Position numbers and translations under genes: made by a program. 64,000 nt of DNA from assembly GCA_020619395.1 (NCBI GenBank), contig GCA_020619395.1_4860.1; one strand, written 5' to 3'. The stretch's first letter is position 1; each line of letters opens with the position of its first letter. This DNA is from a phage. The notes beneath the pieces are model-generated. The model was not told the origin of the DNA. It ran no database searches and worked only from the letters and a program-made list of their open reading frames with translations. This document shows, piece by piece, positions 2,578 to 11,326 of the stretch.

Positions 2578-3204
2578 TTATTGCGGAATAAACTTACGGT
2601 GTCCGAGTGATTCCCAAAAACTATCGGTGCGCTCTTTGGTTAATTCGTACCACGCACGTCCGGCATCAGAATCGACAACCTTTAACGTTTCAGTAAGCAG
2701 GAATTTGAACAGTTCTGCGCTACGACCCGGTGCCACGCCGTCGAGATATATCGGGATTAAATAACCGGTTTTGATTTCTTCGTACGGTTGCGATTGGTGC
2801 TGGCCAACAACCCAGGCATCAGCAGCGCTACCGACCAAAGTGGTGTTTACAGTCAACTCATCAGAAATCCAGTTAACTGTATCAGCCATTATTGAATCGC
2901 CATTGACGTAGAAGAAAACTAAACGTTTAGGTTGCTCCACCGAACCAGCCAAATCTAATGCAGTGGTTCCGGTAAAGATCGTATTGTTAGGGTTACGTTC
3001 CGCAATAGGTAGAGCAAACCACGCTTCTAGCTGTTCCCAGCTACGCGGCAGTGCTTCTTTAAACCACTTCACCAATCGCGGGTATTCCAGAAACCCTTCT
3101 ACCTCTTCTTCCATCAGATTGATACGCAGTTTGGTATCCTGACGATTCGCTTTCTGACACGTCACCATGTCGTCGATGAAACGAATCAGGGTAATCTCGT
3201 TCAT
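2578..3204 (-). CDS. hypothetical protein (208 aa)
   Basis: long ORF, no recognisable motif; co-oriented with flanking genes. Confidence 0.6.
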   Translation of the reverse strand: MNEITLIRFIDDMVTCQKANRQDTKLRINLMEEEVEGFLEYPRLVKWFKEALPRSWEQLEAWFALPIAERNPNNTIFTGTTALDLAGSVEQPKRLVFFYVNGDSIMADTVNWISDELTVNTTLVGSAADAWVVGQHQSQPYEEIKTGYLIPIYLDGVAPGRSAELFKFLLTETLKVVDSDAGRAWYELTKERTDSFWESLGHRKFIPQ

Positions 3205-3221
3205 GTTTAATCCTTCTTCAA

Positions 3222-3250
3222 CAAAAAAAGAAGGTAGCCCGTAGGCTACC
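3222..3250 (-). terminator. rho-independent terminator
   Basis: hairpin ggtagcc-cgta-ggctacc (3233-3250) with T-run on minus strand. Confidence 0.65.
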
Positions 3251-3258
3251 TCTCGTAT

Positions 3259-3759
3259 TTACAGCCCCATATGCATAAGGGAAATGATTGGGACCTTACG
3301 GCCACGAATCATTGCATATGGTTCGTACATTTGTGCGTTAGTTTCGAATAACTCACAGGCCGGAATACGGTCACCGGTGGAAAGTTGTAAGACTTCGATT
3401 TGGTCGCCCCAGAAATTGTTTACTAATACGTGGTCGACGGTGTTGTCTTCACGACCTTCAGGGGTTTTGCAATAAGTGGCTGCGGCGTACCAACCTTTGC
3501 GGTATACTTCATAACCCGCATGAAGCATCCGATAGTACGGACGTAGCTGTGGGGCATTCAACGCAGCATCTAACCATTCGCTGTGGATGCTGTTAATCAA
3601 TACGGTTGCTTCTGCTGGCCAGTCGGTGCGATTGAGGGTTAACTCGCCTAACAACTTCAACTTCCAGCCAGTGGAAAGAATGGCACGGGTACGTTCGGGA
3701 TTGACGTTCATCTGAGTAAAGAAAGAAGAACGGGTATCGTCGAGAATGTTCATGTTCAT
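3259..3759 (-). CDS. hypothetical protein (~166 aa)
   Basis: ORF extends to 3825 but the ATG at 3759 (MNMNILDD..) has RBS aagga 8 nt upstream; upstream ORF part overlaps a hairpin. Confidence 0.5.
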   Translation of the reverse strand: MNMNILDDTRSSFFTQMNVNPERTRAILSTGWKLKLLGELTLNRTDWPAEATVLINSIHSEWLDAALNAPQLRPYYRMLHAGYEVYRKGWYAAATYCKTPEGREDNTVDHVLVNNFWGDQIEVLQLSTGDRIPACELFETNAQMYEPYAMIRGRKVPIISLMHMGL

Positions 3760-3788
3760 TTGCTTAATCCTTACGAGTAATAGTCGAT

Positions 3789-3834
3789 TAAAAAGGACCC
3801 TGCGGCTAAGTGTTGGGGAAATCACCGCAGGGCC
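3789..3834 (-). terminator. hairpin plus T-run, terminator-like
   Basis: ggaccctgcgg / ccgcagggcc arms with ~20 nt loop, T-run on minus strand (plus aaaaa 3789-3793). Confidence 0.4.
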
Positions 3835-3854
3835 AAAGTGAGATGGGTCGTCAT

Positions 3855-3876
3855 CTCACGTTATAACATCTGTCTG
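3855..3876. promoter_or_regulatory. conserved intergenic motif, copy E (CTCAC-gtt-ATAACATCTGTCTG)
   Basis: one of 5 near-identical intergenic copies; function unknown (candidate phage promoter or processing site). Confidence 0.4.
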
Positions 3877-3888
3877 AAAACTTTTCGG

Positions 3889-4272
3889 TTACTGGTCGAG
3901 CGCTACTGAACCACGCACCACCCCTTGCTGTTCAATAACCAGGAGGCGTTGTTTGGTTTTCGTATTGTAAGCGAGCGACGCGCGAAGCGTCGGGTCGCAC
4001 GTTATTGTCTCTACTGGCACAATCTCTTGTGCCTTTGAGTTCAACAGAAAGTAGTAACCTGCCGGACAAGTTTCCTCGCCCTTTGCGTGGACTAGGATGT
4101 ACTCGTCGTGCCGGCTGACTTCTTCACATCTACCATCGTCGCCAGTACAGACTTCGAACGAAGGCGGGTTGTACTGATACGGTGTACCTGGTAGTAAATC
4201 TTCTACGCTGGTTGTAGCTGAAGCAGAAGCGGTAAAGAACACCGCCACGATAATACCCATAAATCCACGCAT
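3889..4272 (-). CDS. exported protein with N-terminal signal peptide (127 aa)
   Basis: N-terminus MRGFMGIIVAVFFTASASA; several Cys in mature part. Confidence 0.6.
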   Translation of the reverse strand: MRGFMGIIVAVFFTASASATTSVEDLLPGTPYQYNPPSFEVCTGDDGRCEEVSRHDEYILVHAKGEETCPAGYYFLLNSKAQEIVPVETITCDPTLRASLAYNTKTKQRLLVIEQQGVVRGSVALDQ

Positions 4273-4285
4273 GTTGTTTCCTTAC

Positions 4286-4696
4286 TTAAAAGTCGAGTTT
4301 ATTGATGCCTACATTTTTCTTAATCGTAGGGTCATACATGATAACCGTCAGGGCATTATCGCCTGGGTCGCGAGTAAACTCGGCAACGGCTTCACCACTG
4401 CAGGCTTGGTTATCATTATAGTTCATGGATTCGGCTTGCCCGGTTGCCATGTTAATGACCCCGTATTCAGGGTCGCCACATGCGACACCGCCCATCGTTT
4501 TCACTAAGAGATAACGGTTGTTATCGGACATCGCAACGATCTGGCAGCTACCGCCTTGTACGTCAGAGTTCTGGCACCAGAACTCTCCGCCGTATTCGTG
4601 ATCGTTAACAACTTTTGGTAACTCGATACTTCCAGCGCGAGCGAAGAAGCTAATGGCCAGAGTAGCAAGTAAAACTGGTAATAAAAAATGTTTCAT
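4286..4696 (-). CDS. exported protein with signal peptide (136 aa)
   Basis: N-terminus MKHFLLPVLLATLAISFFARA. Confidence 0.6.
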   Translation of the reverse strand: MKHFLLPVLLATLAISFFARAGSIELPKVVNDHEYGGEFWCQNSDVQGGSCQIVAMSDNNRYLLVKTMGGVACGDPEYGVINMATGQAESMNYNDNQACSGEAVAEFTRDPGDNALTVIMYDPTIKKNVGINKLDF

Positions 4697-4718
4697 AATA
4701 GCACCTCAATTTTTTGAG

Positions 4719-5210
4719 TTATTCTGAATAGTCGATTGTTTTGATGGTTTCCATACCGTAGTACATAGCGATGGAGGCCAGAGTTTTGGTATCCGGTCGC
4801 TGTACAAAACCGGCCCTGAAATCTTTGCTGCAAATTTTCTCCACTGATAGTTCATCACGATTAGGGATAAGCCATAACGCGTCACCATTGTGACGGTCGA
4901 CTGCACCCCACCAACCACCTGGGCAATCTTTATCGCCCGGACGGTGTACGATAGCGACACGACCGTTGAAGGATATGTCAACTACACGACACTGTTTCTT
5001 AAGCAGCTTACGCGCATTGCACCAGAACGGCTTATCATTAAGATTGATGGTGCGGGTATATGCTGGAATGCTGCCGTTAATACTGCCCTGGAACCCGCTG
5101 AATTCGTCAGCGCGTGCCTTAGAAATCCGTAGCCCAACAACAACTGACATCAACAGCACAGTAAAAAGCACCACTTTGGCCAAGTGGCGATTAACGTTAT
5201 TGCATTTCAT
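4719..5210 (-). CDS. membrane-anchored or exported protein
   Basis: ORF runs to 5255; likely start MKCNNVNRHLAKVVLFTVLLMSVVVGL (hydrophobic segment). Confidence 0.5.
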   Translation of the reverse strand: MKCNNVNRHLAKVVLFTVLLMSVVVGLRISKARADEFSGFQGSINGSIPAYTRTINLNDKPFWCNARKLLKKQCRVVDISFNGRVAIVHRPGDKDCPGGWWGAVDRHNGDALWLIPNRDELSVEKICSKDFRAGFVQRPDTKTLASIAMYYGMETIKTIDYSE

Positions 5211-5598
5211 TTTTGATATCTCCACGATTGAGGGTGATGCGACCGACGAGCACATCGTTGTGATAAAAGCTCACAGCAACCATATTCGGTAATTCCAGTG
5301 GTGACACACTGACCGAGGTGACTTTTGGTTGATTGCACGATATGTCAATCAACCGCTGATACATTTTCAATTTCTTATCAGCGATAACCAGCCCTGTGCA
5401 GTTCTTACCGTCCGTCAGTCTGTAGATTTGTAACTGTTCGACCTCACGCATCAGTTCCGGTTTTTCATTCGGCGCAATGCCATAATCCGAATCAGCTGAT
5501 GTGTATTCAGTCACGTCTGGCTTATCGAAAGCATAAGTTGCTGCAATACCACATGCGGCCAGAACTACTACTGCTTGTAAGAACTTCTTGATAGTCAT
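5197..5598 (-). CDS. lipoprotein (133 aa)
   Basis: signal peptide with lipobox LAAC (MTIKKFLQAVVVLAACG). Confidence 0.6.
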   Translation of the reverse strand: MTIKKFLQAVVVLAACGIAATYAFDKPDVTEYTSADSDYGIAPNEKPELMREVEQLQIYRLTDGKNCTGLVIADKKLKMYQRLIDISCNQPKVTSVSVSPLELPNMVAVSFYHNDVLVGRITLNRGDIKNEMQ

Positions 5599-5623
5599 GT
5601 TTTACTCTATAGTCGATTGGTTT

Positions 5624-5651
5624 AAAAAAGAATAGGCTACCCGAGGGTAGC
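5624..5651 (-). terminator. rho-independent terminator
   Basis: hairpin ggctaccc-gag-ggtagcc with T-run on minus strand (plus aaaaaag 5624-5630). Confidence 0.6.
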
Positions 5652-5673
5652 CAGTTGAGTTAATCTCTTAACT

Positions 5674-5696
5674 CTCACCTAGGTAATATATATCTG
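5674..5696. promoter_or_regulatory. conserved intergenic motif, copy A (CTCAC-ctag-GTAATATATATCTG)
   Basis: directly after stop of 5704..6291 gene. Confidence 0.4.
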
Positions 5697-5703
5697 AGAT
5701 ATT

Positions 5704-6291
5704 TTACAATGTGAAGGTTGTGTTAAGAATACGAAAACCCAATGCTCGCTTAGCGATTTGCATATTTGCAGGCGTGAAGTCCACCAGTTTGATTTGAACG
5801 ATCGATAAATCGTAAAGCTTGTGAAGCACTTCGATTTTGTGTCGCCAATCTGTTTTTTGGTGCAGCTCTATCGTCGTCGGTAACTCACCCAGTCTCGGCA
5901 ACTGCGCCCCAAGTAAACGATGATGGACTTTACCGTTTATAGTTGGGGTGCCTTCCGTGACCATCAGTCGCGCATCGATGTAGTTATTTCGCTTAGCGTA
6001 CTCCATAAAAGTTTTGACATTTATCTTTTCCTCGTATAGAATGCTGCGAAAGTATTCGTAAATGATGTGTCCTGCCTCCCTACCGCTTTCCGAGTCTGGA
6101 ATAACCTTATCGATGAAAATCGCAGAGACCACTTCGCTCCCACGCGAATGCATTGTAATGACCCTATCCCCGTGCTCTGCGGCAGTTAATAATCCACTCA
6201 CATCAAGCCCCACCGGAAACAAGCCACGACTACGCATTACGTGCAGGTCTTCTAACTTGTTCTCTTGCAGTCGTAAAATACGTTCTGTCAT
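5704..6291 (-). CDS. hypothetical protein (~196 aa)
   Basis: ORF track start at 6300 is GTG; ATG at 6291 (MTERILRL..) has RBS gaggtg. Confidence 0.55.
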   Translation of the reverse strand: MTERILRLQENKLEDLHVMRSRGLFPVGLDVSGLLTAAEHGDRVITMHSRGSEVVSAIFIDKVIPDSESGREAGHIIYEYFRSILYEEKINVKTFMEYAKRNNYIDARLMVTEGTPTINGKVHHRLLGAQLPRLGELPTTIELHQKTDWRHKIEVLHKLYDLSIVQIKLVDFTPANMQIAKRALGFRILNTTFTL

Positions 6292-6324
6292 ATACCACAC
6301 CTCAAATTAATTTGAGTTAAGTGT

Positions 6325-6365
6325 AAAAAATAAGAGGACTCCAGTAACCGCGAGGGTTACTGGAG
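6325..6365 (-). terminator. rho-independent terminator
   Basis: hairpin ctccagtaacc-gcgag-ggttactggag, T-run on minus strand. Confidence 0.7.
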
Positions 6366-6370
6366 ATAAA

Positions 6371-6898
6371 CTACACACTCAACGTTTCAATGAATTTGAT
6401 GCGCGCTGGGTGAAATGTGTGATAAACAGTTACTGGCGCGTGCGGGCCTTCGGCTGCGTGTATTGCGCCATCGTATCCGCTCAGCAACAGATGGTCATAT
6501 ATCGCACTACAGTTATACGCCACCGATGCCCATAGTGGTAACTTGTCAAACTCTTTAGGGTGTTGGTGGTAAACCTCCATCAAACCCTTTTCAGGATGAC
6601 TCTCTTGGATACGCTCCCACTCATTTGTTTCAATGAGCAAGTTCCCTTTCTTCTGTGCAACTGTCTGGTATTGATGCGGGGAAAGAATCTCGCGGAAATT
6701 ACCGATATCGACGAACGGGTCAGTAGGATCGTTGATAAATGGATTGGTGATTTCCAAAGAAACGTGGTTGATTAGCCAGCTGGGATTCGCTTTAACAATT
6801 TCAGCAGGGACATCGATGTCTTTATAGACAACTTGAGAACGTGAAAGGTTAGCCTCAACAAACGGCTTATCAGTAACAATATAACCTTCGAGTTTCAT
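6371..6898 (-). CDS. hypothetical protein (175 aa)
   Basis: long ORF, tightly packed with neighbours. Confidence 0.6.
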   Translation of the reverse strand: MKLEGYIVTDKPFVEANLSRSQVVYKDIDVPAEIVKANPSWLINHVSLEITNPFINDPTDPFVDIGNFREILSPHQYQTVAQKKGNLLIETNEWERIQESHPEKGLMEVYHQHPKEFDKLPLWASVAYNCSAIYDHLLLSGYDGAIHAAEGPHAPVTVYHTFHPARIKFIETLSV

Positions 6899-7461
6899 TA
6901 TAAGGCTCCTTTAAAGTGGTATGTTAAGCTTTCTACGAGATGGCAGGTTTGGCTTTCAAAGAAGTGTAAAATGGGCTCAATGGGCACACCGCCGAGATTA
7001 TAGACGATTACGACATGCTTTAATCCGGCCTCGACTTCGCTAAGAAACGATTCGGTTGCGAGTTCACTCTCTGACGAGGAAAGGGTAATCGTTGTTTCCC
7101 CGTCGTCGCTACTACCAGACACGTCCTGTAAACGCAAAACTGTCGGTACGGTTTTACTGATACGAATATCTGGCGGGAGTGTAACCTCCAGTAGCGGTGT
7201 ACGGACTTTACGCGCAAGATAGTTGGTGAATAGATTGGGATCAAGCTCACTGACGCCGCAGCAAATGCAGCTCAGTAAGGTCGACAAGCTTGTCGTTTTA
7301 CGTTCAAATATCCCCTTGATCTGTTTGGCCTTATCGCTATAAAGGAACACCAGCAGCTGGTCGGGGTTATCCGGTAAATCACTTTCAACTCCTTCCCACT
7401 CCGGATCGTTGCGGATGTGCTCTTGCCAGATATCGTTTCGAATTTCTAGTAAACGGAACAT
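6898..7461 (-). CDS. hypothetical protein (187 aa)
   Basis: long ORF; stop overlaps next start. Confidence 0.6.
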   Translation of the reverse strand: MFRLLEIRNDIWQEHIRNDPEWEGVESDLPDNPDQLLVFLYSDKAKQIKGIFERKTTSLSTLLSCICCGVSELDPNLFTNYLARKVRTPLLEVTLPPDIRISKTVPTVLRLQDVSGSSDDGETTITLSSSESELATESFLSEVEAGLKHVVIVYNLGGVPIEPILHFFESQTCHLVESLTYHFKGAL

Positions 7462-11116: not shown

Positions 11117-11326
11117 ATGAGCATTCGTGAAATCACCGCAGGCAGCGACGTTTCTGGTCTGGTAGAAGCAGGCACTGTTCAGGTTTCTGGACTGAGCACC
11201 GTTACCGAAGTTACCGAAGCGCTGGCTAAGAAAGCCGAAGCTGAAGGCGGCGTAGCATTTAAAGTTACCGCTTGTGGCGGCAACAACAAAATGTTCGGCA
11301 ACGCAATCTACTACGTAAACGCGTAA
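11117..11326 (+). CDS. DUF1471 (BhsA/YcfR/YdgH-like) domain protein without signal peptide (69 aa)
   Basis: C-terminal ..EALAKKAEAEGGVAFKVTACGGNNKMFGNAIYY resembles the BhsA family from memory; RBS ggag; codon usage like highly expressed enterobacterial genes. Confidence 0.5.
   Translation: MSIREITAGSDVSGLVEAGTVQVSGLSTVTEVTEALAKKAEAEGGVAFKVTACGGNNKMFGNAIYYVNA

Follow-up and report, generated by a model that had tools for sequence, protein, structure and literature searches.

Why should a giant phage keep four consecutive genes for small proteins that leave the cytoplasm? The question is raised by a stretch of phage DNA of 64,000 nucleotides (nt) (NCBI GenBank assembly GCA_020619395.1, contig GCA_020619395.1_4860.1; the whole stretch is called the window below), in which four minus-strand genes, named A-B-C-D here in their order of transcription, span positions 3889-5598. 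The 95-98.5% DNA identity of region 3000-7000 to the Seoulvirus genomes SPN3US, MET_P1_082_240 and the SPLA and SPFM phages shows that the window belongs to an SPN3US-type giant Salmonella phage and that genes A-D are the orthologues of SPN3US gp180-gp183 (SPN3US_0180-0183). SPN3US itself we take to be a phiKZ-related jumbo phage. All four orthologues are annotated as "hypothetical protein" in every record inspected, and the PHROGs database lists all four families as of unknown function. An earlier note on this DNA had described a series of four exported genes with short or overlapping spacers, and its coordinates and sizes proved exact, with an export signal on each product; what it missed is the central fact of the locus, namely that the genes form a tandem paralog array.

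The paralogy was established with hhalign on separately built subfamily alignments, so that no subfamily informs another. The C group matched the B group at 98.5% (expectation value, E, 1.5e-15) and the D group at 97.1% (E 6e-11), while D matched B at 97.2% (E 4e-11). The PHROG profiles likewise cross-match among B, C and D (B to phrog_8968 at 4.7e-8), and B finds C even by BLASTP (E 5e-8), with the four cysteines in register in the alignments. For gene A, a nine-member alignment including the Erwinia-phage orthologues matched the D group at 84% (E 7.5e-6, 77 columns), and its two invariant cysteines align to family cysteines 3 and 4, i.e., to the second pair only. These comparisons show gp181-gp183 to be clear paralogs sharing one four-cysteine domain, with gp180 as a remote fourth member. 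The product of D is the paralog closest both to A and to the YfjS/YafY lipoproteins considered below.

Gene A (5197-5598, minus strand) encodes 133 amino acids (aa), with an all-beta mature domain and the conserved cysteines C67 and C88. Gene B (4719-5210, minus strand; phrog_17072) encodes 163 aa with C64, C74, C96 and C127, gene C (4286-4696, minus strand; phrog_8968) 136 aa with C41, C51, C73 and C99, and gene D (3889-4272, minus strand; phrog_5248) 127 aa with C42, C49, C69 and C92. A and B overlap by 14 nt, and 22 nt and 13 nt separate B from C and C from D. The start of gene B is the second ATG (at 5210) of a 178-aa open reading frame (ORF); since this ATG is preceded by a GGAG ribosome-binding site and the same start is annotated in the relatives, the longer ORF listed by the program begins too early.

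Across the family alignment the only invariant columns are C41, C51, G69 and C99, and no polar residue is kept across the paralogs; with only cysteines and a glycine invariant, a scaffold or binder is favoured over an enzyme. The AlphaFold (AF2) model of C is all-beta (mean predicted local distance difference test score, pLDDT, 85, and above 90 in the mature part; predicted template modelling score, pTM, 0.77), and runs from a short helix between Cys1 and Cys2 through four strands to three more. The predicted domain is a small unit made only of beta structure, its two four-stranded sheets packing in the manner of adjacent propeller blades.

All three four-cysteine proteins show the marks of Sec export and cleavage by signal peptidase I: the n-region is basic, the 10-15 residues of the h-region are uncharged, and positions -3 and -1 hold small residues. 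D begins with MRG and 15 hydrophobic residues before ASA/TT (the slash marks the cut; signal peptide MRGFMGIIVAVFFTASASA/TT), and C with MKH and an h-region before ARA/GS (signal peptide MKHFLLPVLLATLAISFFARA/GS), which bears out the signal peptides that had been noticed on the 127-aa and 136-aa proteins. B has a long basic n-region and the 15-residue h-region VVLFTVLLMSVVVGL, followed by ARA/DE. It had been described as a membrane-anchored protein, a description that the orthologues do not favour: all of them keep A-x-A directly before the conserved mature N-terminus DEFSGF (ARA/DEFSGFQ in the window, AHA/DEFSGFQ in the Salmonella chromosomal homologue P0028). The hydrophobic segment of B is thus probably a cleavable signal peptide, and B is probably secreted rather than anchored. 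By hydropathy, none of A-D has a second hydrophobic segment.

Gene A is the more ambiguous case. Its N-terminus (MTIKKFLQAVVVLAAC) reads MTIKK followed by FLQAVVVLAAC; residues 13-16 form a canonical LAAC lipobox, Gly stands at +2, and the hydrophobic stretch of 19 residues continues to an alternative signal peptidase I site, TYA/FD. The LAAC lipobox of the earlier note is thus real in this phage; across orthologues, in contrast, it is not conserved. P0048-P0050 have L, S or V where the cysteine would stand, and the boxes of P0047 (LATC) and Erwinia phage Asesino (IAVC) are non-canonical, whereas the Kwan orthologue has no N-terminal cysteine and the Machinavirus and Wellingtonvirus proteins carry type-I signals such as LSFA/E and AVSA/P. 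For A in the present phage, a lipid anchor, retention by the hydrophobic stretch and cleavage at TYA/FD are all conceivable, and the domain would be periplasmic in each case.

An absence of signal peptides had been named as the outcome that would speak against the exported series; export signals were found, by rule, on all four proteins. A signal-like N-terminus also stands on every full-length family sequence read, phage or bacterial, despite the divergence of the sequences, which supports exported envelope proteins as the class to which the family belongs. How unusual is such a run? A crude signal-peptide filter passes 6 of the 66 window genes, namely A-D consecutively, a borderline baseplate protein and one unrelated lipoprotein, and at a background of 3-9% a run of four would be expected, by our own arithmetic, fewer than 0.005 times per window. 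With four of the six passes in a row, the run lies far beyond chance.

The four genes form one compact unit bracketed by terminator-like hairpins. At its 5' border, between the gp179 orthologue and gene A, lies the hairpin GGCTACCC-TCGG-GGGTAGCC with a T-run (5635-5652, minus strand; fold -14.3 kcal/mol, z -4.8, 0/200 shuffles as good). Directly after the stop codon of D come two hairpins (3859-3838 and 3834-3796) and a T-run (3794-3790), together occupying 3790-3859 on the minus strand (fold -32.9 kcal/mol, z -5.7, 0/200 shuffles as good), and this double hairpin is the probable terminator that closes the unit. The unit is further marked by the 10-mer AATCGACTAT, of which the 64 kilobases (kb) hold exactly three exact copies, all inside 2 kb and all on the minus strand, two of them 10-20 nt before start codons. 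One (5609-5618) directly follows the terminator T-run and ends 10 nt before the ATG of A; another (4728-4737) lies within the last codons of B and ends 31 nt upstream of the start of C; the third (3780-3789) directly follows the downstream T-run, before the next gene, the gp184 orthologue. In Asesino the motif occurs at equivalent sites, including those upstream of A and of the gp184 homologue; sites were noted in locus L012 around 2484 and 4348, and Caitlin and Kwan carry it, with one mismatch, upstream of the gp184 homologue. From this distribution we infer AATCGACTAT to be a candidate promoter or regulatory element of this phage group, and the copy at the end of B is possibly an internal promoter, or else a relic of duplication. 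Other searches for signals gave little: sigma-70-like sites were fewer than expected from shuffles, and both of those found lie on the opposite strand; TATATTAC occurs at chance frequency only; and a k-mer screen of the intergenic regions returned mainly terminator T-runs.

Is the array a peculiarity of one phage? By tblastn, A and C turn up in one common set of 64 phage records, which divide by genus into Salmonella (33), Erwinia (27), Escherichia (2), Enterobacteria (1) and Proteus (1), and in four genera the position of the cassette is constant, upstream of the gp184 and gp185 homologues and an SMC-like gene. Seoulvirus and Erskinevirus have A-B-C-D, Wellingtonvirus has A and three paralogs, and Machinavirus A and two paralogs. 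Against Asesino the cassette proteins are 42-59% identical and the flanks 39-46%; against Machinavirus and Wellingtonvirus the cassette is still 28-45% identical, and the flanks about 20-27% or undetectable. That the cassette is better conserved than its flanks speaks for a function that is being kept, and for a target that is itself conserved, rather than for drifting filler. As a side observation, several of the SPFM records (e.g., LR535901, LR535907 and LR535912) match the cassette genes as 4-7 short pieces, their annotated proteins covering 15-20% of the query, which suggests frameshift-type sequencing errors rather than real gene decay.

The family is confined to Enterobacterales jumbo phages and CP4-type islands. 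From 1.84 billion representative proteins, an exhaustive search by profile yielded 38 family members only; the bacterial ones come from Salmonella, E. coli, Klebsiella and related genomes, and the one place in which they occur is the variable cargo slot of CP4-57/CP4-44-type islands, either downstream of a YfjP/YeeP-type GTPase or beside a YfjR/WYL-type regulator. Where the locus is long enough, the slot is followed by a block of DUF932, antirestriction, RadC and CbtA/CbeA genes. The gp181 and gp182 homologues of bacteria lie in CP4-57/CP4-6-type islands near yfjR/yfjP-type genes, and the phage copies in the phage genome. One island, in Salmonella Infantis, reads in the order YfjR-type regulator, secreted 189-aa protein, YfjS/YafY lipoprotein, B homologue, C homologue (71% identical to the phage protein) and a chimera of D and YfjT. 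The chimera (L020, 8994-9227) is a 62-aa ORF in which a D (gp183)-type fragment (CPAGYYFILDS...) passes into a YfjT-type C-terminus (FDVYVNDKKAGTF...). The presence of the phage order together with a recombination scar shows that genes have passed, in one direction or the other, between phage-type and island-type sequences, and the scar shows a phage-type B-C-D block joined into a yfjS-yfjT locus. For reference, E. coli K-12 CP4-57 has yfjS-yfjT in the equivalent stretch, downstream of yfjR. K-12 YfjT was considered as a homologue of the cassette and is not homologous.

In E. coli A30 (L022, 4760-5209) the slot after the YfjS/YafY lipoprotein gene holds a secreted protein annotated "IrmA family protein" and unrelated to gp181; it was compared as a possible gp181 homologue, and the comparison shows no homology. 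The slot therefore swaps different small secreted proteins.

The neighbouring lipoprotein genes of the islands turned out to be more than neighbours. The D group matched YfjS/YafY (Pfam PF20494) by hhalign at 92.3% (E 5.6e-7) over 92 columns that take in the G-x-C-x-x-G-Y-Y motif as well as both cysteines of the second pair; no phage protein reaches the PF20494 threshold, the best being one gp183-group member at E 0.12. Compared directly with YfjS, gp180 gives a weak match (E 0.01) and the gp181 group no significant one, so that the link between gp180 and YfjS/YafY appears only via the gp183 group. By profile comparison, then, the gp183 group is shown to be a remote homologue of YfjS/YafY, inner-membrane lipoproteins that are encoded in the cryptic prophages CP4-57 and CP4-6 of E. 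coli. YafY is an inner-membrane lipoprotein of unknown function, and one of only two among 90 E. coli lipoproteins that activate the Cpx pathway when overproduced (PMC6538781).

A further association emerged from the islands. Secreted proteins with an N-terminal domain that has an Ivy-like C-x4-C-G loop are encoded at L004 10477-11415, L024 5060-5947 and L026 1-723, so that three divergent island lineages pair this domain with a family member, fused in two of them and in separate adjacent genes in the third, an arrangement of the Rosetta-stone type. The C-terminal domain of the fused proteins aligns to the four-cysteine family at E 5e-4, with all four cysteines aligned. The partner domain matched a sequence taken to be E. 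coli Ivy by hhalign at E 8.6e-4, and a search of the PDB returned five matches only, Ivy structures among them at E about 1. The association of the Ivy-like-loop domain with family members is real. A conserved 71-aa cytoplasmic protein precedes the Ivy-like proteins in L004 and L024.

Taken together, these observations lead to a proposal which we regard as evenly balanced between right and wrong: gp180-gp183 would be exported, non-enzymatic periplasmic binding or inhibitor modules that condition or protect the infected envelope. After export, signal peptidase I would free gp181-gp183 into the periplasm, where each would be oxidised to two disulfides; gp180 would stay at the membrane in this phage, lipid-anchored via LAAC or held by an uncleaved hydrophobic segment, and would simply be secreted in other genera. 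There the proteins would act as binding or inhibitor modules, a role suggested by the lack of any catalytic signature, and would condition or protect the envelope over a long infection cycle, whether by hindering superinfection, by hindering lysis from without or by acting on the machinery of cell-wall remodelling or envelope stress. Exclusion or envelope conditioning seems to us the most plausible functional class of the cassette, and among the points in favour of the proposal are the Cpx activation by YafY, the sharing with CP4 islands, the pairing with the Ivy-like domain there, the conserved signals, the invariance of Cys and Gly alone, the borders of the unit and its conservation beyond that of the flanks.

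Several points weigh against this proposal. The link of gp180 to the family rests on the 84% match to the D group; A has no significant profile match to the C group, and the AlphaFold model of A, with seven strands, is of moderate confidence (pLDDT 60 overall, about 75 in the core). The signal-peptide and lipobox calls are those of rules applied to sequence and hydropathy, not of trained predictors. Scans of A-D against Pfam (E up to 1), NCBIfam and PADLOC (E up to 1) gave no match, and a literature search found no paper on SPN3US gp180-183. The Ivy (PF08816) matches of the partner domain, at Pfam E 0.0014-0.0068 and 17-19 bits, lie below the cutoff of 21; because an equally weak Kunitz-like match competes with them, the Ivy assignment of the partner is not established, and the Ivy-like domain is in any case absent from the phage cassette (gp180-183). 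Finally, the strong conservation of the cassette argues against the fast arms race seen in some exclusion systems.

What else might such a cassette be for? A possibility that concerns architecture, and is compatible with periplasmic binding or inhibitor modules, is that each protein supplies two blades and that gp180 and two or three paralogs assemble in the periplasm into a membrane-tethered six- or eight-bladed pseudo-propeller, this complex being the unit that functions. The models of C and A do resemble two adjacent blades, with fold matches that include designed or natural propellers built from two-blade units (3ww8 Pizza3 and 6r5x), the genes are always co-encoded as A and 2-3 paralogs with translational coupling of A and B, and the bacterial loci mostly hold two or more family domains each; yet the monomer model of C is confident alone (pTM 0.77), the number of paralogs differs between genera and the member P0058 is apparently solitary in its island, and we consider the assembly unlikely. 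The bolder version, in which four subunits of two blades each would form a membrane-tethered hetero-oligomeric propeller, viral and island-borne, that mimics or decoys a host envelope machine (a TolB-like propeller or a Cpx-sensing lipoprotein), we consider improbable. Were it true, nucleus-forming jumbo phages of Enterobacterales would possess an arm in the periplasm dedicated to excluding superinfection or controlling envelope stress, and would share it with CP4 islands by horizontal transfer. The Cpx connection can also be read more directly, with the exported proteins acting on the Cpx (or another) pathway and reprogramming the envelope to the benefit of the phage, e.g., in its levels of proteases and cell-wall enzymes or in its surface appendages. 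The remote homology of the D group to YfjS/YafY and the position of several family members, and of YfjS, next to YfjR/WYL-type regulators in islands would fit this manipulation, as would the place of YafY among the two Cpx activators (PMC6538781); against it, that activation is an overproduction phenotype of uncertain specificity and the homology is remote, below Pfam's own threshold. Moreover, host transcriptional responses may matter little after a phiKZ-type takeover. Manipulation of envelope stress is in our view decidedly unlikely.

The exchange with islands invites the converse thought that the cassette is passenger cargo with no lytic role, acquired from CP4-type islands; there it would benefit the bacterium at its surface, in biofilms or in dealings with a host, as would Ag43 or IrmA in that slot. 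The IrmA-family protein in the A30 slot, the yfjS-yfjT pair downstream of yfjR in the equivalent stretch of K-12 CP4-57 and the exchange recorded in the D fragment-YfjT scar can all be cited in its favour. A mere passenger, however, would hardly be kept syntenic across four genera of virulent jumbo phages and more conserved than its neighbours, and the cassette's own terminators and conserved upstream motif have the pattern of a selected phage function; we judge the cargo idea improbable. Sensors of lysis timing, i.e., periplasmic proteins that detect superinfection or the state of the envelope and signal to the holin like T4 RI in lysis inhibition, would suit the predicted periplasmic location and the slower lysis of phiKZ at high multiplicity, from which a lysis-inhibition system has been suggested (PMC12894885). 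The cassette has no adjacent holin or lysis gene, the islands of the bacterial homologues contain no lysis genes, and the family is absent from the Pseudomonas phiKZ-type phages, the tblastn matches being to Salmonella, Erwinia, Escherichia, Enterobacteria and Proteus records only, which makes such sensors very improbable. The spanin-like pair that the earlier note had offered as one candidate is the least credible of all, and we regard it as extremely improbable. With gp180 as o-spanin and gp181 as i-spanin, the gene order being inverted, it would break up the outer membrane at lysis, and the LAAC lipobox of gp180, the hydrophobic N-terminus of gp181 and the 14-nt gene overlap make the label a tempting mis-annotation. 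By the criteria of the phiKZ lysis-cassette study (PMC12894885), an i-spanin has an N-terminal transmembrane anchor and a periplasmic domain that is mostly alpha-helix and coiled coil, and an o-spanin is a small lipoprotein of the outer membrane with a conserved lipobox, its gene lying inside, across the end of or directly downstream of that of the i-spanin in a lysis cassette. Against this, gp181 is a four-cysteine paralog of gp182 and gp183 (hhalign 97-98.5%) with a conserved A-x-A cleavage site, at which it most likely loses its hydrophobic segment to signal peptidase, and the modelled member gp182 is all-beta and globular, not an alpha-helical coiled coil; gp180 is a 133-aa protein with a globular beta domain of the same fold family, and its lipobox is not conserved. 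The lipobox gene also lies upstream, A preceding B, and the remark that this is the reverse of the spanin order was correct. Neither a holin nor an endolysin lies next to the cassette, its neighbours on both sides are genes of unknown function, and the GH108 lysin (35339-35992) is about 30 kb away. The spanin pair thus fails on fold, paralogy, order, lipobox conservation and context, every point on which it could be tested, and we ruled it out: the helical, coiled-coil domain of an i-spanin, the conserved lipobox of an o-spanin and a position in a lysis cassette are all lacking.

Elsewhere in the window, a few genes touch on the same subjects. About 30 kb from the cassette, a cell-wall-related cluster on the minus strand (33884-35992) contains at 35339-35992 the GH108 muramidase, which also has a PG_binding_3 domain, at 34409-35050 a DUF1353 protein and at 33884-34399 a protein that matches Peptidase_M15 weakly (E 0.0076); no spanin-like pair was seen beside it. 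Alone beside these lysin-type genes, on the plus strand at 33267-33758, stands a 163-aa protein that begins with a classic lipoprotein signal (MKRLFIVFAIINLLAGC; the lipobox is LAGC), with no Pfam match and unrelated to the cassette. A 69-aa YdgH/BhsA/McbA-like (DUF1471) protein is encoded at 11117-11326 (plus strand; Pfam E 3e-11) and has no obvious N-terminal signal peptide; its bacterial relatives are periplasmic. Lastly, the 442-aa product of the plus-strand gene at 30030-31358 carries CNLDCEYC (CxxxCxxC) in its N-terminal part, is rich in cysteine at the other end and looks, by eye, like a radical-SAM/SPASM-type enzyme.

What, then, is gained from this locus? Work on nucleus-forming phiKZ-type phages has so far dealt mainly with cytoplasmic matters (nucleus, spindle, protein import), and very little is known of what these phages do in the periplasm. 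What is defined here is a cassette for exported proteins that the Enterobacterales branch of these phages has conserved and kept under selection, and the link to yfjS/yafY gives two sets of orphan genes one shared, testable hypothesis, that of periplasmic binding or protection modules, in genetically tractable hosts. As far as the literature searched shows, the array and its island counterpart are apparently undescribed, and the B, C and D subfamilies lie outside Pfam. If the proteins do block superinfection or lysis from without, this would also matter for phage cocktails that contain SPN3US-like phages.

How does the cassette compare with systems already known? With the spanins (lambda Rz/Rz1; phiKZ gp141/gp141.1) it shares adjacent overlapping genes, one lipobox, one hydrophobic N-terminus and the Gram-negative periplasm as its setting, and it differs from them in two further paralogs, an all-beta disulfide domain, the reversed order and the probable cleavage of the "anchor". 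With the beta-propellers (PD40/TolB-type and WD40) it shares two four-stranded antiparallel sheets, and its SDxxxY-hydrophobic-strand motifs resemble PD40 by eye; there are only two blade-like sheets per chain, in a disulfide-stabilised domain, neither PD40 nor WD40 gave a Pfam match to any of A-D, and no single chain has the four or more blades needed to close a ring. Ivy, the inhibitor of vertebrate lysozyme (a lysozyme/lytic-transglycosylase inhibitor), is likewise periplasmic, with the difference that the match to it sits in the island partner protein and not in gp180-183.

T4 Spackle and Imm and T5 Llp are phage periplasmic exclusion or protection proteins, small and with N-terminal signals to the periplasm or membrane; the proteins described here resemble them in size and in carrying such signals. 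The likeness to Spackle and Imm is proposed as a functional analogy and not as homology; searches of Pfam, PHROGs, PADLOC, PDB sequences and PDB folds gave no relation to any of the three. The mode of action that they would share is the binding of an envelope component or of an incoming lysozyme, with no catalysis, and the difference is a four-member paralog array here against a single gene there. Among the closest known counterparts are YfjS and YafY, small exported envelope proteins of about 130-150 aa like those of the cassette. From these lipoproteins gp181-183 differ by four cysteines and type-I signals with no lipobox, whereas gp180 has their architecture of an N-terminal tether and a two-cysteine domain, and in the Salmonella island the YfjS-type gene directly precedes the homologues of gp181, gp182 and the gp183 fragment, mirroring the order of the phage.

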